Below, one piece after another: positions 93-16,566 of a DNA stretch of 64,000 nt. The notes beneath the pieces were generated by a model. The model did not search any database. It was not told where the DNA came from and saw only the letters and a program-made list of their open reading frames with translations. Made by a program: the position numbers and the translations under genes. How positions within the stretch are numbered: the first letter of the stretch is position 1; the number at the start of each line of letters is the position of its first letter. Source of the DNA: an uncultured Clostridium sp. (GTDB taxonomy: Bacteria; Bacillota; Clostridia; UBA1212; UBA1255); NCBI GenBank assembly GCA_900543695.1, contig UQSG01000001.1:10136-74135 (forward strand), read 5' to 3'.

Positions 93-782
93 CTACTGCC
101 CATAGTAAGCCTTCGGCCCATGTTTTCTCTGATAATGCTTATCCAGGACGTACTGCGCCATGCTGCTTTCCGGATTTAAGAGAAGCGTTTTCAGATCCAT
201 CTCAGCCACGCGCTCCAATACAACGGCGTGGTATACGGAATCCGCGGCATCCTTCCCCCAGGTGAACGGTCCGTGGTTGCGGACGACAATTCCCGGGATG
301 CTCATTGCATCATAGCCGCCGGACAGGATCGTTTCCACAATCACCTTTCCCGTGTTTGCCTCATAGGCCTCCGCCACTTCCTCGCGCTTCAGTTCCCGCG
401 TACACGGAATATCTCCATAAAATGCATCGGCGTGCGTCGTTCCCAGGGCAGCGATCGGGATCCCCGCCTGCGCGAAAGCCACCGCATTTGTAGAATGCGT
501 ATGGGTAACGCCGCCGATTTCCGGAAACGCCCTGTACAGCTCCAGATGTGTCGGCGTATCGGAAGAAGGCTTCCATTTTCCTTCCACCAGATTGCCCTCC
601 AGATCGATCACAGACATATCCTCTGGCGACATCGCTGCATAATCGACGCCGGACGGCTTAATGACGACAAGACCGCGCTCCCGGTCGATTTCGCTTACAT
701 TTCCCCACGTATAAATCACAACGCCTTTTGCAACTAAATCAAGATTCGCAGCCAAGACGCGCTCTTTTAATTCTTCTAACAA
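93..782 (-). CDS. araD: L-ribulose-5-phosphate 4-epimerase (class II aldolase/adducin family; AraD/SgbE/UlaF)
   Basis: 229 aa, near end-to-end similarity to E. coli AraD from memory: [51 protein letters not shown]. The His/Asp metal-site motifs are conserved. Confidence 0.9.
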
Positions 783-797
783 AATTCCTGCCCCCTT

Positions 798-1640
798 TTA
801 AGCGTGTGTTTCCGCAGACCGCTGCAGAATACCGGATAAAAACGCATAAGCCGCTCGAAGCTCACGCTCCGCATCCCGATCTGGCAGACACCAGAATTCC
901 GCCGTAAACCGCAGAACACCCAGATCAAATAAAGTATCCGCAATCACCGGAAAATCAACTTTTCCTTCTCCAAAAAACAAGTTGCGGTAGATTCCCGGCT
1001 TCGTTTCTTTCAAATGTGCAGAAAAAAGATGTCCGGCGCCGCGGCGCAGATCCCCGGGAACGTCTTCCACCGCGTTGCTGATGTTTCCGGTATCGGGATA
1101 GACGCCCAAATAAGGCGAATCAATTTCCGATACATATTCCATGGCCTTTTCAACGGTATTCATAAAATCATTTTCCATTGTTTCCAGGCCCAGAATGACG
1201 CCGCAGGAGGCGGCCATTCTGGCAGAGCGAAAAAGATTTTCCGTAAAATATTTTTTTGTTTCCGAATCGGAGGTCTCGTTGTAATAAACGTCATATCCCG
1301 CCAGCTGAATGATCCGGATGCCAAGATCATAGGCAAGCGCAATCGCGTTCTCCATAATCTGCATCCCCTTCTCGCGGATTTCCGGGAAATGGCTGCCGAT
1401 CGGATATTTTCTGTGCGCGCTCAGGCAAATGGAGCTGACGCACAGCTCCTGCCTGCTCCATGCCGCGAATTCTCTTCGCTGGGCCTTGCTCCATTCCAGG
1501 CGCAGCTGACGCTCCTGTGTTTCATCGATACTCATTTCGATAAAATCAAAGCCGAGCTGTCCGGCCGCACTCATTTTATGCGGCCAGCTCCAGGCCTCCG
1601 GCATTGCCTTTTCATAAAGTCCAAGCTGATATGGCTTCAT
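798..1640 (-). CDS. ulaE: L-ribulose-5-phosphate 3-epimerase (UlaE/SgbU, xylose-isomerase-like TIM barrel)
   Basis: 280 aa. Start LGLYEKAMP..GFDFIEMSIDETQER and IIQLAGYDVYY..PGIYRNLFFGEGKVDF closely parallel E. coli UlaE. It lies immediately upstream of araD and is co-oriented. Confidence 0.85.
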   Translation of the reverse strand: MKPYQLGLYEKAMPEAWSWPHKMSAAGQLGFDFIEMSIDETQERQLRLEWSKAQRREFAAWSRQELCVSSICLSAHRKYPIGSHFPEIREKGMQIMENAIALAYDLGIRIIQLAGYDVYYNETSDSETKKYFTENLFRSARMAASCGVILGLETMENDFMNTVEKAMEYVSEIDSPYLGVYPDTGNISNAVEDVPGDLRRGAGHLFSAHLKETKPGIYRNLFFGEGKVDFPVIADTLFDLGVLRFTAEFWCLPDRDAERELRAAYAFLSGILQRSAETHA

Positions 1641-3910
1641 ATCTGGCTCCCCTTAACATATACGAAATAACGATCCTGTATTTTGCGGACAGATCCCTTC
1701 GCGCCGCCGGCAATCTGAATTTCCGGCCTGTTGAAGGGCCCCATACGGATCCAATCTACAGCGGCGTCACCGTTCCAGTCCGCGGTATAGCTGCATTCGC
1801 CGTCAGAAGCGGTAATTTTGCCGGCTCCTGTGCCGCGCCGGTAAGAGAACGAGAACGGAACCACCGTACGGTCCGCTTTTGTAACGGTATATGCCTCCGT
1901 TTCCAGAGAGGTCCAGCCGTCCGGAAGACGCGGCACAAGACGGAGGCCCCGTTCCGGTGCAATATCGTCGATTCCCAGCAAAAGCCGCGCACATTTTACG
2001 ATTTCCGCCTGCTGAACTGCATTTCCAAGATCGCTGTTGCGATACCAGAACCGTTTCGACCCGTGGACGATCACGCCCTCCGGCACGATGTAGCTGTGAT
2101 CGGTATGATGATAGCAGAACATCGCCGCCGTTTCAATGCATTCCGTCATTTCCTCGTAGCGGTCCAGCATAATCGCCGACTGCGTCAGATAGCCCTGTCC
2201 GTAGCCCATCTGCCGTCCGGATTCCGGTGCATAAAATACTTCCTTCTGCGCCAGGAACGTACGGTTCAGCAAATCAAACCATTCCGGATGCTCATACGAC
2301 ATATCGTATCCAAACATATCGCTGTAAATCAGGAGGTCCACCATCCGCTTATATTCATACGTCCAGCAATCGTCCGTCGTATCTGTATATACCTTTCCGT
2401 AGCGCGGATGCTCCATCAGGAAATGTCTGCCGGCCGCCTCGCGGAGCGCTCCTGCAAAATCCGCAAGCTCAGAAGCATAATCCGCTTCACCAATTTCACG
2501 GAACAGCTCAGCGTATCCTAAAAGCGCAAAAGAAGAAATCAGATTGGAGAAAAGATCATAGCCGCCCGTAATCTGCGTGCTGGTCTCCGATTCTGAAAAT
2601 AAAATATCGGTAAAATTCGACTCCTTCGGATGCGCCTTCTGCCACAGGTAATAATCCGCGGCATCCTTCAGCTCCTTCCGGTGCTCCTGCAGCCACTGGC
2701 GATCCACGACGCCCTTCCGGAACAGAGTAAAGATAAACAGCATGACAGCCGCGTGTCCGTCGTTTTCCTTGCCTTCGTTAAATAAATCGTTTTCGTCCTT
2801 TGCAACCAGATTGGCCACGCGCTTCCAGTGCGGAATCGGGAAACGGACGGAAGGATAATACAGCAGCTTATGGAGGTAATCAGCCGCAGGCACCACGCGC
2901 TTAAAATAACCGAAATTGGTCAGCTCCATCAGCGTCCTTCCGATGTCGCGCGTCCAGACGTGGCCGCCGTAGCTGTCACTGTTTTCCTTAAAGGTTCCGA
3001 AGCCCAGATAGCAGCCAAAGTTGCACGTATACGGCGTGGAAGTATGCGAACGGCCATCGTCCTCAATTTTGCCGTGCGCCATATCCATAATGTTTGCACG
3101 GTAAACGTTCGTATAAACCTCCGCCATCGGCGCGCCGGAAAAAGTGACATCCGGTGCGTCGAAGCCTTCGATTTCTTTCTTTGCATCCGAAGCCGGCAGC
3201 TCGTCCCGGAACTGGTACAATCTGCGCGCCAAACGGTCAATATCCGCATAATAAGCTCTGCTTAAGAAAAAGTCCTGATCCACAAGCGTCCATTCCGGGC
3301 GCAGCTCACCGCCGGCCAGGAGGCCGGTTACGGCAGATACGGCTACGTTTGCACGCTTCGAGTCCTCCCGAAAAAGCATGATTTCCTTAATTTTCTTATC
3401 CGAACGGAGCCGGTATCCAAAAACCCATTTGGTGCATTTTTCCGCCGATTCCGAAGTATTTTCCATCAGCTTCATGGCAGCGTCCTTCAGCGCCTTCGCA
3501 TTCGGATCGGAGACGAAGGGCTCCTGATACGGGGCGTCAAATGCCATCAGCTGCTCTTCCTCTTTCGGACGATAGTACAAATTATAGTTCCACGCATTTA
3601 CGCCGAAGATCACGGAAATCAGATCCTCTGTACGGTCTTCAAATATCACGCGGATCCGCATGAGACGATCCCCCAGGAAAAGACGAATGGAATGATCATA
3701 CATTGCTTCGTTCTGCGCCCACCATTCCGAACAATAATCGGAATCGGTAGCCATTCCCAGGAAAAACAGGGCTTCACACGCTGCCGGGAACGCAAGCGTT
3801 TCGCGATCAATTTTGCGGACTACGCCGCGTTCGTTTCTCGAAACAGAAAACGGGATCCCACATACTTCCAGCGTTTCCGGTTTTTCAGTCTGCTGATATT
3901 GATAAAACAT
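1637..3910 (-). CDS. Large cytoplasmic glycoside-hydrolase-like protein, (alpha/alpha)6-barrel-like, family unassigned
   Basis: 757 aa with no signal peptide. Strong RBS AAGGAGGAAA-N5-ATG. ATGA overlap with the ulaE start indicates translational coupling. Motifs GHVWTRDIGRT, ENDGHAAVML and GQGYLTQSAIMLDRY are typical of six-hairpin glycosidases. Family not determinable by eye. Confidence 0.4.
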   Translation of the reverse strand: MFYQYQQTEKPETLEVCGIPFSVSRNERGVVRKIDRETLAFPAACEALFFLGMATDSDYCSEWWAQNEAMYDHSIRLFLGDRLMRIRVIFEDRTEDLISVIFGVNAWNYNLYYRPKEEEQLMAFDAPYQEPFVSDPNAKALKDAAMKLMENTSESAEKCTKWVFGYRLRSDKKIKEIMLFREDSKRANVAVSAVTGLLAGGELRPEWTLVDQDFFLSRAYYADIDRLARRLYQFRDELPASDAKKEIEGFDAPDVTFSGAPMAEVYTNVYRANIMDMAHGKIEDDGRSHTSTPYTCNFGCYLGFGTFKENSDSYGGHVWTRDIGRTLMELTNFGYFKRVVPAADYLHKLLYYPSVRFPIPHWKRVANLVAKDENDLFNEGKENDGHAAVMLFIFTLFRKGVVDRQWLQEHRKELKDAADYYLWQKAHPKESNFTDILFSESETSTQITGGYDLFSNLISSFALLGYAELFREIGEADYASELADFAGALREAAGRHFLMEHPRYGKVYTDTTDDCWTYEYKRMVDLLIYSDMFGYDMSYEHPEWFDLLNRTFLAQKEVFYAPESGRQMGYGQGYLTQSAIMLDRYEEMTECIETAAMFCYHHTDHSYIVPEGVIVHGSKRFWYRNSDLGNAVQQAEIVKCARLLLGIDDIAPERGLRLVPRLPDGWTSLETEAYTVTKADRTVVPFSFSYRRGTGAGKITASDGECSYTADWNGDAAVDWIRMGPFNRPEIQIAGGAKGSVRKIQDRYFVYVKGSQI

Positions 3911-3939: not shown

Positions 3940-6900
3940 TTATACATGTGCCGCCAGTGCAAAGATTCCGCCGGCTGCATCCGCCTCACTGGCGATGATT
4001 CGCAGCTCTTTCATTTCTTTAAATTCACCGAAGTCCAATTCCAGCAGGTTGAACACCGTGCTGCAGCACTCAATCGCGCGGTTTTTGCACCAGAGGCTCC
4101 GCTGCGGATAGGCCGGAGGCTGAGCCTGCCGGTAATCCGTTTCTCCCGGCGCGACGGGCATCGCAGGAATCTCGCTTCGGTCCGTATCCGGCACATATGT
4201 TGCAAACCCCGCAATCACCTCATTTCCGAAGCCCATATCGGCAGTGCCGGGATAATAAACATCATAGAGATATATGGGACGAAAATACGAGTCTTTTTTC
4301 ACGGCCTCCGCCTCTGCGCGGAAAATTCTGCTGAATACGTCATGGTTGTCGATAAAAGCGCTGAAAAGCACGTAAAGCTTTTTCATTTTCCGGCCTTCAA
4401 GCGAAATCGTGACAACTGGATGCTTCTCTTTGCTGAATGGAAGGAACCCGTTCGGATTCAGAGAAAGCGGGACGGAGGGCAAAATGGGAATGGCTCCGTA
4501 CTGCTCCCAAAGTCCTTTCATAAAGGAGTCCGGGCCCTGCATCATATGGCCATGCGAAGGATGCAGACCGATTTCCCTCCAGTACGCGCTCGGCTTGCAC
4601 GCCTCGTCCGGGATCGGGATCGGGACGACCTGCGCATGCGCCGGCGCGGCTTCGATCTCCAGCGGATAATGGATCGGGCCCTGCAAAGTGGCTTTGTTCT
4701 TACCGGGAGAAAAAAGAATCTCACCCGAGCGGATTGGGAAAACGATCGTTCCGTTTTGCTTCGGCAGAACGGTTCCCTCCGCAGTCAGAAGCTGTCTGCC
4801 AATCAGGAGCTTCCATCCGCCTGTAAGCGCCTTTTCAGACTGATTCCAGACTTCCACTAAAACGGAATTTTGCCCTGCCGCAGCGGCAGCGCGGCAATAT
4901 ACCGCGGGTAAAGAAACCAGCGCGCAGGGATGCAGGAATTCCCTGCCTCCAGCCCGCAGGCGCAGAAAGAGCATTCTTCTGGCAAAATTGAGAATTCCGA
5001 ACCATCCGTAGCATTCGTATTTTTCCAGCAAATCGCGGCGAACAGTTCCCGTGAGTTTATTATTCTGCCATTCCAGCGAGGAGAAAACACCGCAGCGGTC
5101 TTCCACGCCGATCAGCTCCGCATCGCCTTCTATCCGCAGAGAAAAAGAATCTCCGCAGGCCGCCGTCATCTCATAGGTGCAGCGGATCTGAATGGGTTCC
5201 CAAGAGCAGGATACCGTAAGATTTCTTCCGGAGCCTGCTTCAAATTCTACGCTGCTCCAGCCGCAGTGCAGCTCCGGCTCAAGCGTCCATTTTTTCCCTT
5301 CCGCTTCGGCCGTAACGCGGAAAGACGGCGGGCAAAGAACGCGTATAATCTTACGCGTGTCATCCTCTATTTGCAGCTGCATCGAAAAGCCGTTCGTTTT
5401 GGACGTGTAGCTGATTTTGACGCCAGGCAGCTGCAGAGAAGCCTCCGGCCAGTCCTCCGGAATACACGGCGCAATTACCGTTTTATTCTCCGGCATATCG
5501 CGCTTCAGGCCGAAAATCGACTCGATAACAGCCTGAGAAAATACCGCTGCCGAAGGAGAAAAATAAGCAAATCTTTTTTCGTTCGCCGTTTCCGGCCAGG
5601 ATCCGCGCTGATAGCTGCCGCACACTCTGCGCGCAATAAAGGACAGCGGACGCACGGCTTCTTTTTTCATGCCGACAGAGGCGTACGCAGCAGAAGCAAA
5701 CGGCTGCATGTCCGAGCCGCACTGCATTCCCCACGTGGGGACGCCCCAATACGCATGATCGCCAAAGTGATTGGACTGATAAATTTCGCCCTCCGGACCA
5801 GTCATTCGATGCAGCAGGTGATCCAGCGCAGAAACTTTATCAGGATCGTCAATTTCATCGTATAGGATGGGATAAGTAATGCCGTGATACGTTGTTTCCA
5901 GACGAAGCTCTCCGGAAATATCTTCGTACCATGCCGGTCTGCCGAGATCCTTCAGCCATAGGGTTCGATACCATTCCGCCCTGCATCTGCCCGCTTCGGC
6001 GGAATAAAACTCTGCCTCCTCCGGCTTTCCCAGGATCGATTTGATGTAGGACATGATTTCCATCATTCTCACGCCTTCGATTCCGGTTGCCGCACCCTTT
6101 CCCGGGGTGCTTTCGAAATCCTCCTGATTTCCGATCTGCGTTCCCCAGCCGATTACGCCGCTGCCAACGGGATCGTATTCCGCAAAGCTCTGCCATAAAG
6201 CTTTTTCCAGAAAAGGCTCCGCTTCCTCGGCAAAGGCGAGGTCTCCTGTCATTTTAATATAATGCTCTACTTCCCGGAAAAAAAACTGATTATTTCCGCC
6301 CCAGTCACGGCGCGCCGAACCATCGGGGCACAGATCAGGGATCGCGCCGCTTTCAAATACGCGCTGCATCTGGCTGCGGAGACATTCCCGCACTCTGTCG
6401 AATCGGCCATTCCATTCTTCTGCCGCAGTATGCTCCATATGCCACATCGTAGGCCAGTGCTGAATGCTTTCAATCCAGCCGTAAGGACGAAGCCATGCAT
6501 ATTCCACATTCAGCAGCGCATGTCCGAATGCTTCGTTCAGCGCAGCATCCGGAGTATGAATCCGCCACTGTGCCAGAAGATCATCATAATAGCGGATGAC
6601 GCGTTCTTCCTCTTTTACCGGATCGCATCCGGCCAGCTCGACAGCACGCTCTTCCTGTTCTGAAAATCCAACGACGGCAAACAAATCCGTTCCCGTTCCG
6701 TTTGCCACTGCATACGTGCCGTACCTTCCGAAATCGCCCTCTAAAGACATAATCTTGAGATCGGAAAAGTTCCCCTTTACCGCCGTGACGAGCGGACGCT
6801 CTTCGCGCCGGATCAGGACCGTATTGCCGGACAGCTCAGCCGAGCCATGCTCGCAGTCGATTTTTTCTCCGGCCATGCTCTGATTGGGAGAGAAATGCAT

Positions 6901-7326
6901 AAAAGCTATATTTCCCGCGCCGAATTTCAGCCAGAATTTTCTCGGAGCATCACTGTGGATATGAAGCAGCGCCGCGCCCTCCCAGAGCATGTTTTCTCTT
7001 CCAAAATGGAGAGGATACCAAGACGCCTGAAAAGAAGTTCCGTCCGGAAGCTTCACTTCGCTTCTCAATCCGCCCGGGATATTGTCTGCGGTCGTTTCCT
7101 CGCTGCATTCCTGATAAGTAAGCCAGCGCGGCTCGCTTTCACCGACACCAATTACAAATTTTGCCAACAATACGTGTTCCGCACCGCGCGCCTGTGTATG
7201 ATCATATGTCATTACGGCGCCGTTCGGATACGCTTGCCTGAGAAAGACCAGACACTGCTGATAGGCGCATGCCCGCTCGTCCAGCAGCTCCAGTGTGGGG
7301 GAAATGTCGCTTTCGTTTTGTCTCAT
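3940..7326 (-). CDS. Very large (1128 aa) cytoplasmic glycoside-hydrolase/phosphorylase-like protein, family unassigned
   Basis: RBS AAAGGAGAA-N6-ATG. Central (alpha/alpha)6-like segment WLRPYGWIESIQHWPTMWHMEHTAAEEWNG with beta-sandwich flanking regions. No signal peptide. Divergent from the AraC regulator gene. Confidence 0.35.
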   Translation of the reverse strand: MRQNESDISPTLELLDERACAYQQCLVFLRQAYPNGAVMTYDHTQARGAEHVLLAKFVIGVGESEPRWLTYQECSEETTADNIPGGLRSEVKLPDGTSFQASWYPLHFGRENMLWEGAALLHIHSDAPRKFWLKFGAGNIAFMHFSPNQSMAGEKIDCEHGSAELSGNTVLIRREERPLVTAVKGNFSDLKIMSLEGDFGRYGTYAVANGTGTDLFAVVGFSEQEERAVELAGCDPVKEEERVIRYYDDLLAQWRIHTPDAALNEAFGHALLNVEYAWLRPYGWIESIQHWPTMWHMEHTAAEEWNGRFDRVRECLRSQMQRVFESGAIPDLCPDGSARRDWGGNNQFFFREVEHYIKMTGDLAFAEEAEPFLEKALWQSFAEYDPVGSGVIGWGTQIGNQEDFESTPGKGAATGIEGVRMMEIMSYIKSILGKPEEAEFYSAEAGRCRAEWYRTLWLKDLGRPAWYEDISGELRLETTYHGITYPILYDEIDDPDKVSALDHLLHRMTGPEGEIYQSNHFGDHAYWGVPTWGMQCGSDMQPFASAAYASVGMKKEAVRPLSFIARRVCGSYQRGSWPETANEKRFAYFSPSAAVFSQAVIESIFGLKRDMPENKTVIAPCIPEDWPEASLQLPGVKISYTSKTNGFSMQLQIEDDTRKIIRVLCPPSFRVTAEAEGKKWTLEPELHCGWSSVEFEAGSGRNLTVSCSWEPIQIRCTYEMTAACGDSFSLRIEGDAELIGVEDRCGVFSSLEWQNNKLTGTVRRDLLEKYECYGWFGILNFARRMLFLRLRAGGREFLHPCALVSLPAVYCRAAAAAGQNSVLVEVWNQSEKALTGGWKLLIGRQLLTAEGTVLPKQNGTIVFPIRSGEILFSPGKNKATLQGPIHYPLEIEAAPAHAQVVPIPIPDEACKPSAYWREIGLHPSHGHMMQGPDSFMKGLWEQYGAIPILPSVPLSLNPNGFLPFSKEKHPVVTISLEGRKMKKLYVLFSAFIDNHDVFSRIFRAEAEAVKKDSYFRPIYLYDVYYPGTADMGFGNEVIAGFATYVPDTDRSEIPAMPVAPGETDYRQAQPPAYPQRSLWCKNRAIECCSTVFNLLELDFGEFKEMKELRIIASEADAAGGIFALAAHV

Positions 7327-7492
7327 CGTTCATTCTCCTTTGCATTCTACTTTCCGCAGGATTCATTTGCCCTCATTATATCGGGCGCCTGCTGAAGGTA
7401 AAATTGCACAAAACATATTATTGATGGACAAAAGCGCAAAACTGTGCTAAAATCTGAAAAAGAAAGAACAAGAAAAAGGATGAGTTTATTTT

Positions 7493-8305
7493 ATGCCGAA
7501 AATAAAATATGTTGGCCGGTTATATGAAAATACGTACCGCATCAATCTTCACACGCATGATTTCTGGGAAATTGTACGCTATACCAAAGGAAGCGGTCTG
7601 GTAGAAATTGACGGAGAAATCATTCCTTTTCAGGAAAACGATATTTTTGCGATCCCGCCGAATGTCCCGCATACGGACTATTCCGATACGGGCTTTCAGA
7701 ATTATCATTACACCTTCAATGATGACGACTTCAACAGACTCTCTTATATGAAGTTTCCGGATACGGAGAACAACGATTTTCTGACGATCATGAAGCAGCT
7801 CTATCACGAATATCATTTGAAGCGCAAAAATTATCAAAACATTATAGACAGCCTCTATACGGTTTTGTTTCACTATATTCTGGCATTGTCCGAAGAAGCG
7901 GAAAGCAATCAATATGTAGCGCTTGTCATCAATGAAATCATCAGCAATATTTCTAATCCGGAATATGAAATTCAGCAGACACTGCAAAAAATTCCGTTAA
8001 CGGAAGACTATTTTAGAAAATTATTTTTCCAGGAGACCGGAAAGACGCCGCTCCAGTATCTCACGCAGAAGCGAATCTCTTTTGCAAAGCAGCTGCTCTG
8101 TCTTCAGGCCCATTCCGGGATTTCCATTCAGGAAATTGCCTGGCGGTCCGGATTTGCAGACAATTATTATTTTTCCCGTGTTTTTAAAAAGGTTACGGGC
8201 GTCAGCCCCAAATATTGGGCGGAGTACGACAAACAAAAAGCAGAGGAAGATAATGAGCTTCCCAAGCGCAATTATCTTCCTCCTGAGACAAAGGATTATG
8301 AATAA
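7493..8305 (+). CDS. AraC/XylS-family transcriptional regulator (N-terminal cupin sensor, C-terminal HTH)
   Basis: 270 aa. C-terminal AraC signature ..QEIAWRSGFADNYYFSRVFKKVTGVSPKYW. N-terminal beta-rich cupin region. Sits in the sugar locus divergent to the 1128-aa GH. Confidence 0.85.
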   Translation: MPKIKYVGRLYENTYRINLHTHDFWEIVRYTKGSGLVEIDGEIIPFQENDIFAIPPNVPHTDYSDTGFQNYHYTFNDDDFNRLSYMKFPDTENNDFLTIMKQLYHEYHLKRKNYQNIIDSLYTVLFHYILALSEEAESNQYVALVINEIISNISNPEYEIQQTLQKIPLTEDYFRKLFFQETGKTPLQYLTQKRISFAKQLLCLQAHSGISIQEIAWRSGFADNYYFSRVFKKVTGVSPKYWAEYDKQKAEEDNELPKRNYLPPETKDYE

Positions 8306-8340
8306 AGCGGTCTTAATGGATCGCTTTATTTCTTTTTCTT
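8304..8340 (+). terminator. Intrinsic terminator after the AraC-family gene
   Basis: Hairpin AAAGCGGTC-ttaatg-GATCGCTTT followed by ATTTCTTTTTCTT, 1 nt after the stop codon. Confidence 0.55.
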
Positions 8341-9489
8341 GCTTCGTACGATCACAACGACGAAGATGATTACAACAACTGCAATCGCGCCGATCAGCAC
8401 ATAAACCAGCCAGCCGTTTCCGCTGTCCGCATCCTCTGTGCTGCCATTCGTCGTCGGTACGGGCGTCTTTTCCGCAGCAGGCGTTCCGTCTGTTCCTGCA
8501 GTCGGCTCCGTCTCCGACGTAGGCTGTTCGGGAGCCGGCGTGCTTTCTTCCGCCTTCTCATAGACAGCCAGGTTATCAAGGCCAAAATTATTAGCGCGGT
8601 TGATAAAAGCAAACAGGCCTGTTACCGGTACCACGGCTTCATCGACGGTAGCCACAACCGCACCCTCAGCGTCTTTGATTTCCACCTTGCGATAGGAATC
8701 GCCGGAGAAGAGCTCCATTCCTGCCAGAGAAGTATCCCAGTAATTTTCATTCCAATGCGTCGTCACCTCGTCCGGTTCGGACATCGTAATCGTGCAGACG
8801 AGATTATCTTCTACGTATACGGCAATCTCGCCGTTCTCCTCCTGCACGCAGACAGACGTAAATTCCGTGAAATTAACGCCCTCGGGCATCTGGAACTGGT
8901 AGGAAACGGTGTATGCGCCGAGCATCCTGTCCGCCGCGTTTTCTACGACGCCGGTCGTCGCCTCGCCGTTAATCGGTCCCGCCGTGCCGCCATTTTTGTT
9001 TGTGTGTACGCCTACCTCCAGGATATTATCAAAAAAGTAAATAAACACGCCGGCAGCGCCCAGGAAGGACGTCAGATCCTTATCCTCATTGTCCGGCTCG
9101 ATCACCATGCCAACGGAATCGGCGGGAACGTGCAGCGCCAACGCGGATTTATAGGCATTTTCCGCCAAATTTCCGGGGATTGCCGTTTTAATGTCGAACT
9201 GCACACGGTAGTCAATCACCTCGTACATGGAATACACATAAGCCCCAGAAGGGAACATGCCGTTGTAATACGTGTTGTCGCCTTCTGTTACGACATTTTC
9301 CGCCTTTACATCGTAAGTGTTAAAATACGTGTAGAAATCGTCGGGAAGCACGCCGTCATAGCCCTCAAAATCGGTTACATATGCTTCGTTAAAGCTTTCC
9401 GGGAGCTCCGGAACAGCTGCTAGGGCCGGCAAAACGCCTGCAAAAGCCATGACTGCCGCCAAAAGACTTGCTATTATTTTTCGTTTCAT
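8326..9489 (-). CDS. Secreted cell-surface protein: signal peptide, beta-rich domain, Pro/Thr/Glu linker, C-terminal transmembrane anchor with KKKK tail
   Basis: 387 aa. N-terminal MKRKIIASLLAAVMAFAGVLPALAA signal peptide. Linker ..STPAPEQPTSETEPTAGTDGTPAAEKTPVPTT. C-terminal WLVYVLIGAIAVVVIIFVVVIVRSKKKK. RBS GAGAGGAG. Confidence 0.6.
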   Translation of the reverse strand: MKRKIIASLLAAVMAFAGVLPALAAVPELPESFNEAYVTDFEGYDGVLPDDFYTYFNTYDVKAENVVTEGDNTYYNGMFPSGAYVYSMYEVIDYRVQFDIKTAIPGNLAENAYKSALALHVPADSVGMVIEPDNEDKDLTSFLGAAGVFIYFFDNILEVGVHTNKNGGTAGPINGEATTGVVENAADRMLGAYTVSYQFQMPEGVNFTEFTSVCVQEENGEIAVYVEDNLVCTITMSEPDEVTTHWNENYWDTSLAGMELFSGDSYRKVEIKDAEGAVVATVDEAVVPVTGLFAFINRANNFGLDNLAVYEKAEESTPAPEQPTSETEPTAGTDGTPAAEKTPVPTTNGSTEDADSGNGWLVYVLIGAIAVVVIIFVVVIVRSKKKK

Positions 9490-9508: not shown

Positions 9509-11029
9509 TTACGATTCCGACGGAATCGTATATTCTGTTACGGTACTTTCTCCGAATGTGTTGCGCGTCTGAATATAGCAGACATTTCCGTCTCTTTCTT
9601 CGGGGAGCTCGACACCGTCATTAATATTGTAATAGACCCATTCCCCCTGCGTCTCCGCATCAAAGGAAATCCGGTATTCGGTTGGATAGCCATCCAGGGA
9701 AAGGAAAAGCGCATCGTCGTCTGAAGAAAGGACCTCAGGGGCAGGCGGCGCCTCCTGCTTCCAGTAATTCAGCTTATACAGATTTGTTTTGACATTGTCA
9801 AACACAAGAAAACCGAAATCCACATTTGGTTCAATATGGGTGCTGCCATACAGCGACACTCCCTCCTGCGGCTGCTCCTTCCAGGCCATCGCATAATTAA
9901 AGCGGTTGATCAGAAGCGCTTTGGGAGACAGCTCCGCCACACCGCGGAGCGTACGTTCAAACGTCGTCTGACCGTTTACAATGTGATTCAGCTCATCCCA
10001 GTTCTCGCCGCCTTTATGGAGCGAGGCCCAGGCGATCATTTGCTCCACGCTTCCATCCGCAGCGTCTTTGTGGAAAATACGGTACATGCCTTCCCCGGCG
10101 TCAGGATCCTCTTCAGATTCTACAAAGAACCAAAGCGGCACATCGCCGGAAATGGACTTGCTTCCATCCTTCTGCTCTTCCGTATATGGAGACAAATAGC
10201 CGTTGCTGAAGCGAATATTGAAGCGCTCATCATCAAATATTTCAGTCCCCTCCGCTACTTTTTTCTGAAGCTCTGAATCAATAAAAATGATGAGAAACGG
10301 CTTGGAAGCGCGATCGGTCCCGTCCTGCAGACGATACCAGGCATCAGGATACTGTTCGTACAGCGTATAAACATCCGTCAGCACTTCATTCAGCGCATCG
10401 TAATTTTCCCCACTGAGCCGCACTGTAATGTAAATCTTGGGCGATTCGAAGCCAAGCGACGCCGATGCCTCCTTTAGAAGCACCTCCGTGTTTGCATAGA
10501 CTCCGTACGTATATTTATACCAGTCCTGTCCCGGCGTTTCCAGCCGGTAAGAAGTATAGTTGGTCCAGTCTACCGCCACGCCGTTGCAGCCGAGCGCTGA
10601 CATCCAATACAAATGCTGTCTGGCCGTTTCCGGATCTCTTTGATCATATAGGCCCATCAGCGGCGTTGTCGTCCGGTAATTGCCGCTCACCTGGACTGTG
10701 TCGGGATGCTGCGGGTTCAGCGGCCACCACCCTCTTTGCGGACGGCCGTTCGTCGTCGGTCCCGTGTCGATATCATACCACATAATCATATCCATGGTTC
10801 TTCTGCCCTCTTCTCTTGCGCTGAGCGTCTGCGGCTTTTCCACCGGTTTCGGTTCAGCAGCTCCTCTGCCGACATAGAAATAGATTCCAACCGCACACAG
10901 CACGGCCGCGCAAACAACCGCTGTTAAAGTGCAGCCCTTTGCCGAAAGCCTTTTCTTTGCATACAGTACAAACAGAAGAAGCGCGGCGATAACCGCCAGG
11001 AAAACAAGAAGCAATATTTTTACAAGCAT
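9509..11029 (-). CDS. N-terminally membrane-anchored extracytoplasmic protein, possible glycan-active enzyme
   Basis: 506 aa. Two N-terminal hydrophobic helices (LLLVFLAVIAALLLFVLYA; LTAVVCAAVLCAVGIYFYV) followed by a large soluble domain with an aromatic-rich segment HLYWMSALGCNGVAVDWTNYTSY. Function is inferred only from context. Confidence 0.35.
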   Translation of the reverse strand: MLVKILLLVFLAVIAALLLFVLYAKKRLSAKGCTLTAVVCAAVLCAVGIYFYVGRGAAEPKPVEKPQTLSAREEGRRTMDMIMWYDIDTGPTTNGRPQRGWWPLNPQHPDTVQVSGNYRTTTPLMGLYDQRDPETARQHLYWMSALGCNGVAVDWTNYTSYRLETPGQDWYKYTYGVYANTEVLLKEASASLGFESPKIYITVRLSGENYDALNEVLTDVYTLYEQYPDAWYRLQDGTDRASKPFLIIFIDSELQKKVAEGTEIFDDERFNIRFSNGYLSPYTEEQKDGSKSISGDVPLWFFVESEEDPDAGEGMYRIFHKDAADGSVEQMIAWASLHKGGENWDELNHIVNGQTTFERTLRGVAELSPKALLINRFNYAMAWKEQPQEGVSLYGSTHIEPNVDFGFLVFDNVKTNLYKLNYWKQEAPPAPEVLSSDDDALFLSLDGYPTEYRISFDAETQGEWVYYNINDGVELPEERDGNVCYIQTRNTFGESTVTEYTIPSES

Positions 11030-11052: not shown

Positions 11053-12174
11053 TCATGCATTGTTTTTTCTGCGCCGGATCACAATCCCAGCCGTCGCGCC
11101 AATGAGAAACGCCGCTGAAATGCCGAGCAGAAGTCCGGAATCACCGGTTGACGGGTTCGGCTTCTCCGGATCGGGATTCTGGTCCGGGTTCTGATCATCC
11201 GGATCGACAGGAATCTCAGGATCAACCGGATCCTCCGCCTCCGCCGTCTTACTGAGCTTCAGCGCATCCAGACGCGCACAGAATCTTCCGGAGCCATTGT
11301 CAACGCTAGAAATCGTGATTTTATGAATTCCTGCGGCCAGCTCTATCTCGCCCAGCTCCTGCTCTTCAAGCGTCCAGCCGCCGTCATGGTACAGATTGAC
11401 CGGCTCGCCAATCTCCTGACCATCGATCGCAATCTGAACGGAGCAGCTGTCATTGTTTAAGATGTAGGCAAGAGAAACGTTGTATTTTCCGGACTGCGGA
11501 ACAACGAGAGACACCGTTTCCAGAGAACGTCCAGCTTCATAGAAGTCCACGTTGACTATGGCGTCAACCGGCAGCGCTTCATGCGTGTAATTGCTTTCCA
11601 GATGGAATTCATCAGATTTGGTATATGCGTTTCCTTCAAATTCAAAGACAATTTCATCCGAGGGCGTCAGCTCCTCCAGGGTAAGATAATCCAGCAGCGC
11701 GCAGTAATACGCCGACTCCTGACTTGTAAAGGTCAGCGTATGCGTGCCTGCGGACAAAGTCATCAGGCCGACCGTTTTTTTACCAGCCTCCCAGCCGGCG
11801 CCGTTGTTCAGATTGATCTGACTGTCAATTACAGTGCCGTCAATTTTCATTTCTAAAATTCCGCCGTCCTGGTTCAATACGTATCCTAAAGTAATGAGAT
11901 AAATAGCTTCCTTTTCTACAGTGAACGTAGTTTCCAGAGCGTTTCCTGCCTCATAAAAGTTTACGTTCGCCGCACTTTCTACCGGGAGCGCCTCATGCAC
12001 AAAAGGCACCTCGAGAAAAAATTCTCCAGTTTGTGTCCATTCCTGATCTTCCAGCTCGAAGGTGATCTGCTCCTCGGCCGCACCTGCCGGAAGCAGGCTG
12101 CAAGCAAAAAGCGCCGCAACCACAAAGAAAATTAGGAAGCTAGCTTTACTTTTTCTTAATCCATGTTTTACCAT
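11053..12174 (-). CDS. Secreted surface protein with two tandem ~125-aa carbohydrate-binding-like beta-sandwich repeats, Pro/Asp linker and C-terminal transmembrane anchor
   Basis: Start reassigned to the internal Met (MVKHGLRKSKASFLIFFVVAALFAC), which follows RBS AAGGAGGA-N9-ATG. Repeat 1 ITFELEDQEW..LDYLTLEEL and repeat 2 IVFEFEGNAY..LDALKLSK are clearly homologous. Linker DPVDPEIPVDPDDQNPDQNPDPEKPNP. C-terminal LLLGISAAFLIGATAGIVIRRRKNNA. Confidence 0.55.
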   Translation of the reverse strand: MVKHGLRKSKASFLIFFVVAALFACSLLPAGAAEEQITFELEDQEWTQTGEFFLEVPFVHEALPVESAANVNFYEAGNALETTFTVEKEAIYLITLGYVLNQDGGILEMKIDGTVIDSQINLNNGAGWEAGKKTVGLMTLSAGTHTLTFTSQESAYYCALLDYLTLEELTPSDEIVFEFEGNAYTKSDEFHLESNYTHEALPVDAIVNVDFYEAGRSLETVSLVVPQSGKYNVSLAYILNNDSCSVQIAIDGQEIGEPVNLYHDGGWTLEEQELGEIELAAGIHKITISSVDNGSGRFCARLDALKLSKTAEAEDPVDPEIPVDPDDQNPDQNPDPEKPNPSTGDSGLLLGISAAFLIGATAGIVIRRRKNNA

Positions 12175-12338
12175 TTTAAAAATCCTCCTTTTCTTTTGAC
12201 AACTGTTCTGCCTAAAAAGATACCCCAAACATACATTCTTTTAAATAGACATTATCGTTTTTTTGTTGGACAATTCATAACACATTTTTTTGTAAAAAAT
12301 GTTTGGCGATAAGAAAATCTGGATATTTTTGTAAAAAA

Positions 12339-12373
12339 GAAGATAATTTCAATTTTAATTTGAAATTATCTTC
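12339..12373. repeat. Perfect 14-bp AT-rich inverted repeat (GAAGATAATTTCAA-N7-TTGAAATTATCTTC) between the kinase and surface-protein genes
   Basis: Read directly. On the minus strand it is followed by a U-run, so it could be a weak terminator after the kinase gene, or an operator. Flanked by two TTTTTGTAAAAAA direct repeats in an AT-rich ~190-bp spacer. Confidence 0.5.
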
Positions 12374-12421: not shown

Positions 12422-13885
12422 TCAGCGTTCCAGCATTTCCTGATACAGAGCATATTTTTCTCTGTAGACAGGAACCTTATGCGCGTCCGGAGAAAAGGTC
12501 TTCCGAATATGAACCATTTCTCTGGCAGCCGTATGATAATCCGGATATGCGCCGCAGCAAATGGAAGCAGCGATCGCAGCGCCCATTGCGCCGAGCTCTT
12601 TTCCGTCTACGACCTGCAGGGGCGTCTCAAGAACGTCGGCAAACAGCTGCATCCACACATCTGAATTTGCCGCGCCGCCCGCAATTCGAATATAAGGCGG
12701 CGTCTTTCTGTACTTCAGCAGTCTTTCAACATGCTGCTTGTGGGAAAATGCGACGCCCTCATATACCGCCCGCAGAAGATGCTCCGTACCATGACCGCTG
12801 TGCAGTCCTACCCACGCAGCATGCTTCCGGTTCCGTGCGTTGCTGCCGTATAAAAACGGGAAAAACAGAAGCGAAGAGGATTCCGGCGCTACAGAGGCCA
12901 CCATATTGTCGATTTCCCCGTAAGAGGGCTTATCCTTCCCAAACAATATGCCGCGTACCCAGTCCAGATTCCCTGCGGAAGTCGGACTGCTTTCTTCGAT
13001 AAGGTAATATCCCGGCATACAGAAAAGCGAATGATTCACGCCCTCCTCCGGCGCAACCGGTTCCTGCGATATATATTCGTTGATGCTCCACGTTCCGGTA
13101 ATAACGCAGATTGGAACGGAATCAGAGACGTCCATGGCGATCGCGCAGGCATCGATATCGAACATGCCTCCGCACACCGGAATTCCCTCGGGAAGCCCCG
13201 TACAGGCCGCTGCTTCTTTCGTTACGCAGCCACAGTGCGCTGAGGAATCCGCTAACGGCGGCAGACATTCCGCAATCTCCGGGATTCCGTAAAGTCTCAG
13301 CAATTCCGGATCATACGCTTTCTTCCGGAGGTTCAGAAGTCCCGTTCCGGAGGAATCCGTATATTCAGCGAAAGGACGGCCTGTCAGCATAAAGCGGATA
13401 TAATCCTTTGCTTCAAACACCCATTGAATGTTCTGATATACCTCCGGCTGATTCCGCTTCAGCCAGGCAAGGAGCGCAGTCGGCTGACATGCCAGAGTGG
13501 ATTGAAGATTCAGCAGCCCCGCCTGCGCCGTCGTTCCGTTCTGCTCCCATTCCCGAACGAGCTCGGCCGCCCGCTGGTCTGTCGAAGCAATTGCCGGCGC
13601 GCACGGTTTGCCGTCCTTTCCCCAGAGATACAGTCCTTTCCCATGACCGGTACATCCCACTGCGGCAATTTTCTCCGGAGCAATGCCGGAAGCAGATATC
13701 GCCTTTTGTATGGCAGCCGTCGTCTTCTCCCACAGAAAAATCATATCCCGTTCGTGATAGCCTTCCCGCACCACTGTAACGGGAGTTTGTTCAGAGGCAG
13801 CGCTCATCTGCTGCCCGCTGGAGGAAAATACGGCGGCCTTGATATTGGTTCCGCCATTGTCAATCCCTACAAAATATCGTTCCAT
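12422..13885 (-). CDS. FGGY-family carbohydrate kinase (pentulose kinase; L-xylulokinase/ribulokinase-like)
   Basis: 487 aa. N-terminal GIDNGGTNIKAAVF actin-fold ATPase motif. C-terminal FGGY motif IRIAGGAANSDVWMQLFADVLETP. RBS GAGGAG-N8-ATG. Sits between the isomerase-like gene and the surface-protein genes. Confidence 0.75.
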   Translation of the reverse strand: MERYFVGIDNGGTNIKAAVFSSSGQQMSAASEQTPVTVVREGYHERDMIFLWEKTTAAIQKAISASGIAPEKIAAVGCTGHGKGLYLWGKDGKPCAPAIASTDQRAAELVREWEQNGTTAQAGLLNLQSTLACQPTALLAWLKRNQPEVYQNIQWVFEAKDYIRFMLTGRPFAEYTDSSGTGLLNLRKKAYDPELLRLYGIPEIAECLPPLADSSAHCGCVTKEAAACTGLPEGIPVCGGMFDIDACAIAMDVSDSVPICVITGTWSINEYISQEPVAPEEGVNHSLFCMPGYYLIEESSPTSAGNLDWVRGILFGKDKPSYGEIDNMVASVAPESSSLLFFPFLYGSNARNRKHAAWVGLHSGHGTEHLLRAVYEGVAFSHKQHVERLLKYRKTPPYIRIAGGAANSDVWMQLFADVLETPLQVVDGKELGAMGAAIAASICCGAYPDYHTAAREMVHIRKTFSPDAHKVPVYREKYALYQEMLER

Positions 13886-13906
13886 ATCCCGTTTCTCCTC
13901 TGTCCG

Positions 13907-15100
13907 TTATGCCTGCGCCTCGGCAGCAGGATAATGCTTCAGCATAACAAGCGGTTCATATGCGCTGGCATTTTCGACGAGCACGCCGTTCGAAGCGGCA
14001 GGATAAGAAACAAAAAATTCATCTTCGCTTTTCTGTCCAAAGCGCAGCATGGTCGCCGCAGCACAGCGCTGCCCGGCCAGCTTGCCGTAGCCCTGCACAA
14101 CGATGCAGCCGTATGCGGTGTCATCCGTGATCCGTGCAGAGCAGCCTGGATATACAGTCAGCTCTTTTGCCGCAATGTACTCGTTTCCGTATACAATCTG
14201 CTTTACCATATAGCTTTCCGTTTGTTCCAAAATAATGGGCGGACGGAAATAGTGTTCTTTATATTGCGGATCGATGTTCTTTTCCCAGTCCATCATTTCA
14301 ATAACATAGTCCGGATCTCCCCAATGCTCCGGCGGACAGTTTTCATAGAGGAAGCTGTCGTCATAGATTTCGCTGTCAGTAATATTTTCGAAGACCGCAT
14401 TTACGTCCGAATTCCACTGCGGTTCATAAGTAAGATAGGAGCCGGGAGCATGCAGCACTCCGGGCGGCGTATACCAGCCGGTTCCCAATTCGATCCGATA
14501 CGCTCTGGAAAGCTCTGTGATCCGCAGATCCCGCTTTTGATAGTCCCTCAGACGTTCCCGCAGATCATCCTTGGTGGTATCCGCAGTAAATCCAAAATAA
14601 GTGTGCGGAAATTTTCCGGGATAGTTATTATATTGCGGCGGATAATAATACGCCTCCGGTTTTCCCAGCTTTCCGACGCGCGCTGCAGCTTCAAAGCCCA
14701 GATGCATATGATGGAACAGAGGTCCCTCGTAATCAAAAAATTTGGAGTACATCGGCCACGTCTGGTGCCGTCTGTAACAGTTCTCTCCGATCATTTCTTC
14801 CCGAAGCGTATCGACAAATGCCTTCAGCGTGATTCTTTCCCCGCTGCAGCCATCCAGGTTTACATAGCTCATACCTTCGTCCGGCGCGGCGTCGGGGCCG
14901 TTCATTGCTGTAATTACAGAAGAAAACCAGCGTTCCTTAATGGAACCGCGTTTTGTGCCAAGCGCATAATAATCATCGGGATGCAGCCGCAGACGTCTGC
15001 CCGCCGTTCCGAAGCGGCGCGGTACGAATGTCGGGATAAGCGGAAGAACACCGCCGCGATCCTGAAAAAATGAATTTATAATTTCTTTTTCTGAACTCAT
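13907..15100 (-). CDS. Type-I phosphomannose-isomerase-like cupin protein (putative sugar aldose-ketose isomerase)
   Basis: 397 aa. Segments KFFDYEGPLFHHMHLGFE, EAYYYP and GTGWYTPPGVLHAPGS..EPQWNSDVNAVF parallel the Zn-binding and cupin motifs of class I PMI (KLLD..SIQVHPDD; ECWYII; FYYVPSGTLHA..ETQQNSDATYRV) as recalled. RBS AAAGGAAGAG. Confidence 0.45.
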   Translation of the reverse strand: MSSEKEIINSFFQDRGGVLPLIPTFVPRRFGTAGRRLRLHPDDYYALGTKRGSIKERWFSSVITAMNGPDAAPDEGMSYVNLDGCSGERITLKAFVDTLREEMIGENCYRRHQTWPMYSKFFDYEGPLFHHMHLGFEAAARVGKLGKPEAYYYPPQYNNYPGKFPHTYFGFTADTTKDDLRERLRDYQKRDLRITELSRAYRIELGTGWYTPPGVLHAPGSYLTYEPQWNSDVNAVFENITDSEIYDDSFLYENCPPEHWGDPDYVIEMMDWEKNIDPQYKEHYFRPPIILEQTESYMVKQIVYGNEYIAAKELTVYPGCSARITDDTAYGCIVVQGYGKLAGQRCAAATMLRFGQKSEDEFFVSYPAASNGVLVENASAYEPLVMLKHYPAAEAQA

Positions 15101-15447
15101 TTCATCTCTTCCTTTCTATATATTCTGTATATCAGTGTATAAATAAAAAGAGATTCTCTCAATGTACAATTTCTTGTTATCCATGGACAAATGCGTAAAA
15201 CCGGCTGCGGAAACGGAAGACGGCAAAATGTAAACCCAATGAGAAATGGATCACGGCAGATCTGACAATGGGCGCCGTCGAATCGAAATTTGCAGATATT
15301 ATCTGGCAAAATGAAGCAATTTCATCCGCCGGGCCTGCAAGCAAAGCCAACAATTGCTGGGCTGGAAGAAGAGCACATCTTTTACTGTGCTGAGGAGGAG
15401 CTCGAATATCTGCGCCGCCTGGTTGCAGAATACGAGGAGGAATAGAC

Positions 15448-15840: not shown

Positions 15841-16566
15841 TTATAAAACCTTAGAAAGAAAGTCCTTCGTCCGTGCGTGCTGCGGATTTCCAAACAGCTC
15901 CTCCGGCGTGTTTTGTTCGATGATCACGCCTTCATCCATAAACAGGACGCGGTTTGCCACCTCTTTTGCAAATCCCATCTCGTGTGTTACCACAATCATC
16001 GTCATGCCTTCATCCGCCAGCTCGTGCATCAGAGACAGCACCTCGCCTACCATTTCCGGATCCAGCGCGCTCGTCGGTTCGTCAAACAGCATAACCTCCG
16101 GATTCATGGCAAGCGCCCGCACGATCGCAACACGCTGCTTCTGCCCTCCGGAAATCATGGAGGGATACGCGTTGACCTTGTCCGCAAGCCCGATCCGTTT
16201 CAGCAGCCGGTTCGCATTTTCCGCCGCCTCTTCCTTTGTTTGCAGCTTCAGCTTTACCGGAGCAAAAGAAATATTTTCCAGAATTGTAAAATGAGGAAAT
16301 AAATTAAAATGCTGAAAAACCATCCCCATGCTGCAGCGGATTTTATTAATATCCACATTTGGTGCCGTAATATCCACGCCTTTAAAAAGCACCTTTCCGC
16401 TCGTGGGCGTTTCCAGCAGGTTCAGGCAGCGCAGGAACGTGCTCTTTCCCGAGCCGGAAGGGCCTATCACGACAACCTTTTCATTTTTTTGAATTTTCTC
16501 GCTGATACCGTTTAATACGATTTTTTTGCCGTCAAACGTCTTTACGAGATTTTCAGTTTCGATCAC
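15841..16566 (-). CDS. Polar amino acid-type ABC transporter ATP-binding protein (GlnQ/HisP-like)
   Basis: 241 aa. Walker [10 protein letters not shown]. Signature [15 protein letters not shown]. Walker [13 protein letters not shown]-loop VVTHEM. Start overlaps the permease stop by 14 nt. Confidence 0.9.

Follow-up and report, generated by a model that had tools for sequence, protein, structure and literature searches.

The window analysed here is a 64,000-nucleotide stretch of contig UQSG01000001.1 from an uncultured Clostridium sp., and the gene under study encodes a 397-residue double-cupin protein with the fold of class I mannose-6-phosphate isomerases (PMIs), which we predict to be an aldose-ketose isomerase for a free sugar. 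It lies directly upstream of a kinase gene on the minus strand, where the following features were located:

13907..15100, minus strand: target cupin gene, 397 aa, ATG start; PMI-fold bicupin, predicted free-sugar aldose-ketose isomerase
15134..15162, minus strand: promoter-like site 5' of the cupin gene, TTGAGA-17-TACACT in a consensus scan; a pattern match only
12422..13885, minus strand: FGGY kinase gene, Pfam FGGY_N/C; nearest characterised relative E. coli LyxK (L-xylulose kinase)
12339..12373, minus strand: terminator-like hairpin 3' of the kinase gene, a 14-bp stem plus a T-run

The cupin gene is preceded by a ribosome-binding site (GGAAGAG), and its stop codon is separated by 21 nt from the start of the kinase gene, which has a ribosome-binding site of its own. 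Given this short gap, the promoter-like site before the cupin and the terminator-like hairpin after the kinase, the two genes look like a two-gene operon, with cotranscription read from the sequence. Antisense to the cupin gene runs a 549-aa open reading frame (ORF; 13424..15073, plus strand), a shadow ORF without independent support.

Single-sequence searches matched the target to no described family. No Pfam family was hit even at E <= 1, no relative was found among PDB sequences, and neither Pfam nor NCBIfam yielded a match to models of PMI, D-lyxose isomerase or L-ribose isomerase; on TIGR00218, the ManA equivalog model, the target scored 11.1 bits against a cut-off of 116.2, and BLASTP against E. 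coli ManA was not significant (best E = 0.02 over 32 aa). The close family nonetheless comprises at least 8000 clusters at 90% identity, and the best 120 matches to the target (64-98% identical) all bore the name "hypothetical protein" and carried no Pfam domain. When 1.8 billion representatives were searched exhaustively, the matches at E <= 1e-3 fell into 1237 clusters (50% identity), and full-length superfamily members reached down to ~30% identity. Two alignments were built, one of 58 close homologs and one of 29 diverse sequences (28-84% identity to the target). H131, H133, K147-P148-E149, H217 and E226 were invariant in all 58 close homologs, and the residues invariant in the diverse alignment included E56, W58, K120, H131, H133, K147, E149, Y151, H217 and E226. 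The segments that hold the metal-site and catalytic candidates are:

14690..14722, minus strand: PLFHHMHLGFE, residues 127-137; H131 and H133, the H-x-H metal motif, correspond to Q97-x-H99 of the E. coli and Salmonella PMIs
14654..14662, minus strand: K147-P148-E149, counterpart of the PMI motif (H/G)K(P/T)E with its Lys and metal-ligand Glu; GKPE aligns with GKTE of the PMI structure 1qwr
14438..14476, minus strand: WYTPPGVLHAPGS, residues 209-221; cupin motif 2, with H217 as predicted fourth metal ligand
14393..14425, minus strand: E226-PQWNSDVNAV-236; E226 matches a conserved PMI Glu (Salmonella E264), and V236 stands at the position of the phosphate-binding Arg (SDNVLR)

The PLFHHMHLGFE segment and the second cupin motif had been singled out in an initial annotation of this DNA, and both are real: they lie in the exact ORF, and their metal residues are invariant in the 58 close and the 29 diverse sequences. 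The HHMH metal motif proposed there survived in part. Because H131 and H133 are invariant whereas H130, the first His of HHMH, is kept in the close subfamily only and is replaced by P, F, L or Y across the superfamily, the functional metal motif, as judged from this conservation, is H-x-H and not HHMH.

The relationship to PMIs was detectable only with a profile of diverse superfamily members, as the single-sequence searches of Pfam, NCBIfam and PDB had given nothing useful. Against PDB, the profile of the diverse alignment retrieved 1zx5, a "putative mannosephosphate isomerase" of A. fulgidus, at E = 3.6e-8, the B. subtilis PMI 1qwr at E = 2.9e-6 and the Salmonella PMI at E ~1e-4, and in these alignments the target H-x-H fell on the (Q/K/H)-x-H of PMIs. 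The initial annotation had contrasted the target segment with SIQVHP of class I PMIs; the contrast holds for E. coli ManA (PLSIQVHP), but the first-ligand position varies among PMI-fold proteins, reading SIKVHP in 1qwr and QVHVHP in 1zx5. Alignment of the family profile with E. coli ManA by hhalign covered the N-terminal half only, at 61% probability, and paired K120 with K86, H131 with Q97 and H133 with H99; for this reason the equivalences of the Glu and the second His rest on the 1qwr and 1zx5 hidden Markov model alignments together with the fold match. An AlphaFold model computed from the diverse alignment reached a pLDDT of 95.4 and a pTM of 0.93, and Foldseek ranked class I PMIs at the top of its matches, with 1qwr first (E = 5e-19, target-normalised TM score 0.79), followed by 1zx5 (TM score 0.80) and then by the Salmonella and Candida PMIs. 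An earlier model built from the 58 close homologs (pLDDT 66.7, catalytic core <50) was discarded; with it, Foldseek had returned generic small cupins only, on the C-terminal domain. As modelled, the target is a bona fide class I PMI-fold bicupin, composed of a catalytic cupin, a helical region and a second cupin, with 12-21% identity to PMIs, and it has the double-stranded beta-helix with H-x-H...E and ...H metal motifs that defines the cupin superfamily.

Most of the PMI active site is retained. For six of the residues probed by mutant structures in the Salmonella PMI (K86, H99, K132, E134, H255 and E264) the target has the same amino acid, at K120, H133, K147, E149, H217 and E226, respectively; we infer the equivalence of K147/E149 to K132/E134 from the motif alignment. 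In the second cupin motif, GVLHAP of the target aligns on GTLHA within VPSGTLHA of 1qwr, and on RPGIPHA of 1zx5, and the segment with E226 aligns with ETQQNSDAT of 1qwr. Relative to the zinc site of PMI (Gln-x-His...Glu...His), H133, E149 and H217 are kept and the predicted first ligand is His131, a position occupied by Lys in 1qwr and by His in 1zx5. This change from Gln97 to His131 is one of two exceptions; the other is at Arg274, the seventh probed residue, which aligns with Val236. Arg274, in the motif SDNVLR, is established as the phosphate clamp of the Salmonella enzyme (R304 in Candida). The target motif reads SDVNAV, Arg occupies the V236 column in no sequence of the superfamily alignment, and 1zx5 shares with the target both the H-V-H arrangement and the absence of the Arg.

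The genes that accompany the cupin encode enzymes of pentulose-phosphate metabolism. Over its full length the window kinase was 36% identical to E. coli LyxK (325 bits), with far lower scores against XylB (122 bits), FucK (101), RhaB (47) and AraB (41). Three further genes of the window recur with the cupin elsewhere:

798..1640, minus strand: L-ribulose-5-phosphate / L-xylulose-5-phosphate 3-epimerase of the UlaE/SgbU type; NF009689 316 bits (cut-off 200), TIGR00542 275 bits (cut-off 272)
93..782, minus strand: L-ribulose-5-phosphate 4-epimerase of the AraD/SgbE type; NF006047 360 bits (cut-off 257)
7493..8305, plus strand: AraC-family regulator, Pfam AraC_binding and HTH_18; recurrent cupin neighbour

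The 3-epimerase is 42% identical to E. coli SgbU, and the 4-epimerase 58% identical to AraD and 55% to SgbE. The initial annotation had described a pentose-phosphate-epimerase locus, which applies to the family rather than to the immediate surroundings of the target: both epimerase genes lie ~12 kb downstream of the cupin in the window but next to it in most related loci.

Related loci were collected from named genomes with the close alignment (80 loci), and neighbours within 10 kb were counted in the 70 that contained a complete cupin, many of the contigs ending short of that distance. A metagenome-assembled genome of Candidatus Egerieisoma faecipullorum carries a gene with 98% identity to that of the window; homologs at least 61% identical occurred in Bacteroidales, Verrucomicrobiia, Treponemataceae, Selenomonadaceae and Thermoflexales, and members of the family are abundant among anaerobes from gut, rumen and wetlands. 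Carriers in culture include Christensenella tenuis NSJ-35 (L025) and, with a variant locus, Massiliimalia massiliensis (L019). A LyxK-like kinase was the most frequent neighbour (42 of 70 loci), followed by an SgbU-like 3-epimerase (30), an AraC regulator (28), a monosaccharide-binding protein (22), relatives of two large window proteins of 757 aa (21) and 1128 aa (19), an AraD-like 4-epimerase (16), a URO-D-like protein (16) and a FucU mutarotase (10). In one locus (L001) the order was AraC, cupin, SgbU-like and LyxK-like; in another (L006) it was RhaM, ATP-binding cassette (ABC) transporter, a protein of no assigned family, a cupin paralog, cupin, SgbU-like, LyxK-like and AraD-like. For all 47 cassette kinases compared, the best E. 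coli match was LyxK (36% identity, 320-360 bits; XylB <=144). Companions of the cupin further included aldose mutarotases (FucU, and RhaM in some loci), CUT2 monosaccharide ABC transporters and major facilitator superfamily (MFS) sugar transporters, and the sugar-binding protein of the loci showed only a generic likeness to ribose-binding proteins. By tblastn over ~95 loci, LyxK-like sequences were found in 49, SgbU-like in 43 and AraD/SgbE-like in 23-25, whereas SgbH, XylA, AraA, AraB and ManA were found in none and RhaA or FucI in only 3, at a distance from the cupin. Since no known ketose-forming enzyme recurs in these loci, the cupin is the only candidate isomerase, and the cassette has a "missing isomerase" pattern in which a kinase and two epimerases are accompanied by the cupin as the sole candidate for ketose formation.

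More distant superfamily members occupy comparable positions in other sugar loci. In a 4.7-Mb genome (L096; CP157793.1, 4919-9240), a 44%-identical homolog directly follows a bifunctional rhamnulose-1-phosphate aldolase/dehydrogenase (equivalog level, 1138 bits against a cut-off of 634) and stands ahead of genes for a DUF4432 protein and a CUT2 ABC transporter, with an FGGY kinase and a DeoR regulator divergent; neither RhaA nor RhaI was present in the locus. Its layout is that of the rhizobial rhaDI / rhaRSTPQUK locus with the cupin at the position of the isomerase gene, and the TIM-barrel enzymes RhaA and RhaI are the only isomerases known for that step (PMC3870299). The L096 homolog may represent a third type of isomerase for L-rhamnose (or a related deoxy-sugar), one of cupin type. 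A 49%-identical homolog (L095) is accompanied by a rhamnulokinase-like kinase and an epimerase of the AraD type, and further members are placed after sugar ABC transporters (L098) or beside a ROK-family glucokinase-type kinase (L093). An archaeal member with 33% identity (L092, 7001-9457) adjoins a bact-PGI_C gene, of the bifunctional phosphoglucose isomerase (PGI)/PMI family, amid housekeeping genes (Topo VI, eIF-1A, RIO1). In the L006 locus (5400-7983), and also in L014 and L025, a tandem cupin paralog of 399 aa (44% identity, motif HHVHH) lies upstream of the cassette; ahead of it come a 449-aa protein assigned to no family, a mutarotase resembling RhaM, and a CUT2 ABC transporter. Between the 449-aa protein and the URO-D-like neighbour only a faint colinear similarity was seen.

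On the analogy of fold and gene context, the target is probably, although by no means assuredly, a free-sugar isomerase that feeds a LyxK/SgbU/AraD route, fold and context being the source of both the proposed reaction type and the unphosphorylated substrate. That the sugar would be free, and isomerised before phosphorylation, is suggested by the absence of an Arg at the clamp position, by the mutarotases and monosaccharide transporters of the loci, and by the position ahead of the kinase step that homologs hold in rhamnose-type loci. By analogy with PMI, H131, H133, E149 and H217 would hold a divalent metal that binds O1 and O2 of the open-chain sugar, while K120, K147 and E226 would shift a proton between C2 and C1 via a cis-enediolate. 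The cupin would thereby convert L-lyxose (less likely L-xylose) to L-xylulose, which the LyxK-like kinase would phosphorylate to L-xylulose-5-phosphate; the SgbU-like 3-epimerase would then give L-ribulose-5-phosphate, and the AraD-like 4-epimerase D-xylulose-5-phosphate, which would enter the pentose phosphate pathway.

L-Xylulose is the predicted ketose because the combination of a LyxK-like kinase with an SgbU-like 3-epimerase is sensible only with an L-xylulose-5-phosphate intermediate. The aldose partners of L-xylulose are L-lyxose and L-xylose, of which L-lyxose has cis hydroxyls at C2 and C3 and L-xylose does not. Tentatively, we infer that the substrate is L-lyxose. It is favoured as the pentose homomorph of L-rhamnose, which fits the rhamnose-type contexts of sister branches and the RhaM mutarotases of some cassettes, and also by a route known from E. 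coli mutants, by a side activity of a Bacillus PMI and by the cis C2/C3 preference. E. coli mutants metabolise L-lyxose via L-xylulose, LyxK, SgbU and SgbE (PMC6958661); a Bacillus class I PMI has weak but measurable activity from L-lyxose to L-xylulose, and the free aldoses that it accepts all carry cis C2/C3 hydroxyls (PMC4718643), a preference shared by the cupin D-lyxose isomerases (PMC6746899). Readings with a hexose substrate (L-galactose/L-tagatose, D-sorbose/D-tagatose) were set aside, as were routes by uronate isomerase or decarboxylation and those by way of aceric acid or apiose, because they do not fit the equivalog-level L-ribulose-5-phosphate 3- and 4-epimerases and the LyxK-like kinase or would call for redox enzymes that the loci lack.

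Several points weigh against this assignment. The proposed function is drawn from fold and gene context, and the register by which Val appears to replace the phosphate-clamp Arg comes from the 1qwr motif alignment and not from structural superposition. L-Lyxose is rare in nature (PMC6958661), and so is L-xylose, yet the family is abundant and stands beside large putative glycan-processing proteins; the true substrate may therefore be another sugar. The FucU-type mutarotases would suit an L-galacto or D-arabino configuration better than L-lyxo. To judge from the archaeal member next to the PGI/PMI-family gene, some superfamily branches might act on phosphosugars. Finally, in seven variant loci (L010, L019, L043, L063, L065, L079 and L082) the cupin is followed by another AP_endonuc_2 TIM-barrel protein of ~316 aa, weakly similar to D-psicose-3-epimerase and IolO (e.g., L010, 11198-12148), and the flanks retrieved with it showed no LyxK-like kinase.

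It is possible, although we regard it as somewhat doubtful, that the target is a PMI-fold aldose-ketose isomerase or epimerase for a free sugar other than L-lyxose, such as L-xylose, L-ribose or L-arabinose (giving L-ribulose), or a sugar released by the co-located enzymes. The evidence from fold, active site and context applies equally to such a sugar, the rarity of L-lyxose (PMC6958661) and the FucU mutarotases in 10-11 loci speak for it, and the co-occurrence of large Pfam-less proteins, DUF6259 proteins and URO-D-like proteins would imply a feedstock that is not known. However, a LyxK-like kinase with an SgbU-like 3-epimerase needs L-xylulose-5-phosphate, routes through L-ribulose need no 3-epimerase, and the cis C2/C3 preference of PMI-fold enzymes disfavours L-xylose and L-arabinose. 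The same class of explanation includes unconventional enediolate chemistry, in that the protein might, as a mere speculation, catalyse a retro-aldol/aldol rearrangement of a branched pentose such as apiose to a pentulose.

An unlikely alternative is that the cupin replaces SgbH/UlaD as a metal-dependent decarboxylase of 3-keto-L-gulonate or its 6-phosphate, yielding L-xylulose or L-xylulose-5-phosphate in an ascorbate or 2,3-diketogulonate-type pathway. The mechanisms of UlaD/SgbH and of PMI both run through a metal-bound enediolate, and the cassette equals E. coli lyxK-sgbH-sgbU-sgbE minus sgbH plus the cupin. LyxK also phosphorylates 3-keto-L-gulonate (PMC6958661). Against a decarboxylase, blastp of the ORFs from the 80 loci of named genomes gave no homolog of SgbH, YiaK or YiaL, and no locus contained a YiaK-type reductase, a UlaG lactonase or another source of 3-keto-L-gulonate; aldose mutarotases and monosaccharide transporters accompany the cupin, the PMI phosphate-clamp position has no Arg, and homologs hold the isomerase slot of rhamnose-type loci, where there is no decarboxylation step.

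Very improbable is a divergent but genuine mannose-6-phosphate isomerase with a housekeeping role or a role in GDP-mannose supply. The fold, that of class I PMIs, and the retention of most catalytic residues would agree with it, as would the archaeal relative beside the PGI/PMI-family gene and the relative beside a ROK-family kinase, but the ManA equivalog score of 11 bits (cut-off 116), the lack of a Pfam PMI domain, the non-significant BLASTP comparison and the missing phosphate-binding Arg argue against it, and so do the operon shared with a LyxK-like pentulose kinase, the linkage to pentulose-phosphate epimerases across dozens of genomes and the catabolic, inducible setting indicated by an AraC-type regulator and sugar transporters. 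On this question the initial annotation fared well. It had called the protein type-I PMI-like, which the diverse profile and the Foldseek matches of the high-confidence model bear out, while denying that it is a housekeeping ManA, and no high-identity match to a characterised ManA was found. Of the PMI, D-lyxose isomerase and L-ribose isomerase families against which it had proposed an alignment, none was matched in the Pfam and NCBIfam searches. Its suggestion of a new substrate specificity finds support in the LyxK/SgbU/AraD-type cassette, that is, from context, although the H-x-H motif has a precedent in 1zx5. The last alternative, a sugar-sensing or otherwise non-catalytic cupin outside this pathway, has cupin domains as ligand sensors in AraC-type regulators to recommend it but is most improbable given a full PMI catalytic constellation that is invariant across a superfamily of 1237 clusters (50% identity), identities of at least 61% across phyla that are typical of a constrained enzyme, the absence of any DNA-binding or signalling domain, and a pathway otherwise without an isomerase.

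Between the cupin operon and the epimerase genes, the window encodes several proteins that may take part in glycan use:

1637..3910, minus strand: 757-aa cytoplasmic protein of no known family; no Pfam match above cut-off, GtaA_6_Hairpin at E = 0.02
3940..7326, minus strand: 1128-aa cytoplasmic protein of no known family; no Pfam match above cut-off, GDE_C at E = 0.12
9509..11029, minus strand: 506-aa membrane-anchored protein of no known family, present in 8 related loci; no PDB relative by sequence
8326..9489 and 11053..12228, minus strand: two membrane- or cell-wall-anchored proteins in the interval between operon and regulator

The 757-aa and 1128-aa families accompany the cupin across Clostridia, Bacteroidales and Verrucomicrobia. 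Neither had PDB relatives in a sequence search or a signal peptide by eye, and all database relatives of the 757-aa protein were "hypothetical"; its profile, however, matched GH125-type structures in PDB at E = 0.003, and it is possibly an (alpha/alpha)6 glycosidase. Both may represent new glycoside hydrolase families, with sub-threshold (alpha/alpha)6 hints only. The interval that holds the 506-aa protein also encodes a 387-aa protein, which has a linker rich in Thr and Pro and a transmembrane segment at its C-terminus, and a 391-aa protein in which CBM6/CBM35 repeats are combined with an LPXTG-like anchor; the three anchored proteins between operon and regulator suggest glycan capture at the cell surface. 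On the other side of the operon, a 689-aa fusion (16553-18622, minus strand) joins a secreted region at the N-terminus, which includes a weak GH2-like domain (PF00703), to an ABC permease (BPD_transp_1, residues 519-684), flanked by genes for an ABC ATPase (15841-16566, minus strand) and a 779-aa GH2 protein (18619-20958, minus strand). In the related loci, the URO-D-like neighbours (16 loci) showed weak similarity to MtaA/CmuA methyltransferases, and other recurrent neighbours were ~730-aa DUF6259/DUF5696 proteins and an unannotated 489-aa family (8 loci); L040 (7794-8894), L048 (16275-18464) and L054 (15344-16813) contain examples of such neighbours without known role.

The literature searched contained no description of the family, of the cassette, or of a cupin-type isomerase for L-rhamnose or L-xylulose routes. 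What is new is a family of predicted isomerases on the PMI fold, in which a metal ligand is altered, the phosphate clamp is absent from its PMI position and the predicted specificity differs from those known. A broader proposal, which we consider doubtful, is that the cupin marks, as its signature enzyme, an uncharacterised system of sugar utilisation that is widespread among anaerobes (gut Clostridia, Bacteroidales, Verrucomicrobia and spirochaetes). Under this proposal the 757-aa, 1128-aa, 506-aa, DUF6259 and URO-D-like proteins would liberate or remodel a sugar not so far linked to these habitats, either a rare L-pentose (L-lyxose) or a precursor converted to L-xylulose by non-canonical enediolate chemistry, and the superfamily would form a third, non-orthologous class of L-sugar isomerases of the L-rhamnose/L-lyxose type beside RhaA and RhaI. 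If the predicted function is correct, a large family of "hypothetical" proteins without a Pfam or NCBIfam model would gain a function, and a LyxK/SgbU/AraD-type pentose route, one common among Clostridia of the gut and rumen and among environmental Bacteroidales and Verrucomicrobia, would have its missing first step filled. The PMI-fold cupin would be a third, structurally unrelated solution to isomerisations of the L-rhamnose/L-lyxose type, and the PMI scaffold would appear retunable from phosphosugars to free sugars, with His for Gln at the metal and no Arg at the clamp. PMI-fold enzymes serve in making rare L-sugars, which gives the family practical interest; moreover, a conserved set of putative glycan-processing proteins is flagged, for whose substrate one could search with the operon as reporter.

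Among known systems, the closest in structure are the class I PMIs (EC 5.3.1.8; 1qwr, Salmonella 2wfp/3h1m, Candida 1pmi and E. coli ManA), from which the target differs by its low identity (12-21%) and scores below every curated PMI model, by His rather than Gln as predicted first metal ligand, by Val at the phosphate-binding Arg position, by its place in a predicted inducible catabolic operon with a pentulose kinase rather than in mannose metabolism, and by its predicted action on a free sugar before phosphorylation. AF0035 of A. fulgidus (1zx5), an uncharacterised structural-genomics target, is shorter (300 aa) and 14-19% identical. D-Lyxose and L-ribose isomerases are single-cupin proteins of about 180-250 aa with Pfam families of their own, whereas the target is a 397-aa bicupin whose structural neighbours are PMIs. 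What the small cupin isomerases have in common with it is the cupin metal site and, as predicted for the target, free-sugar substrates, a cis-enediolate and a cis C2/C3 preference (PMC6746899).

In gene content, the nearest system is E. coli yiaK-S / lyxK-sgbH-sgbU-sgbE, which serves the L-xylulose / 3-keto-L-gulonate route. It has counterparts of the window partners (36% identity to LyxK, 42% to SgbU and 55% to SgbE) and the same predicted end product, D-xylulose-5-phosphate, but in no cassette locus were the decarboxylase SgbH, the reductase YiaK, YiaL or a tripartite ATP-independent periplasmic (TRAP) transporter present. For the step from L-lyxose to L-xylulose E. coli borrows the TIM-barrel enzyme RhaA, whereas the cassette would have a dedicated PMI-fold protein. 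RhaA and RhaI, metalloenzymes with a TIM barrel whose isomerase activity extends to L-lyxose and L-mannose, would be isofunctional or nearly so with the target, sharing the predicted role of isomerising free L-manno-configured aldoses ahead of an FGGY kinase; the likeness to rhaI is positional only, as seen in L096, and the cupin fold of the target, which has no Pfam match, is unrelated to the folds of RhaA/RhaI, XylA, AraA and FucI.

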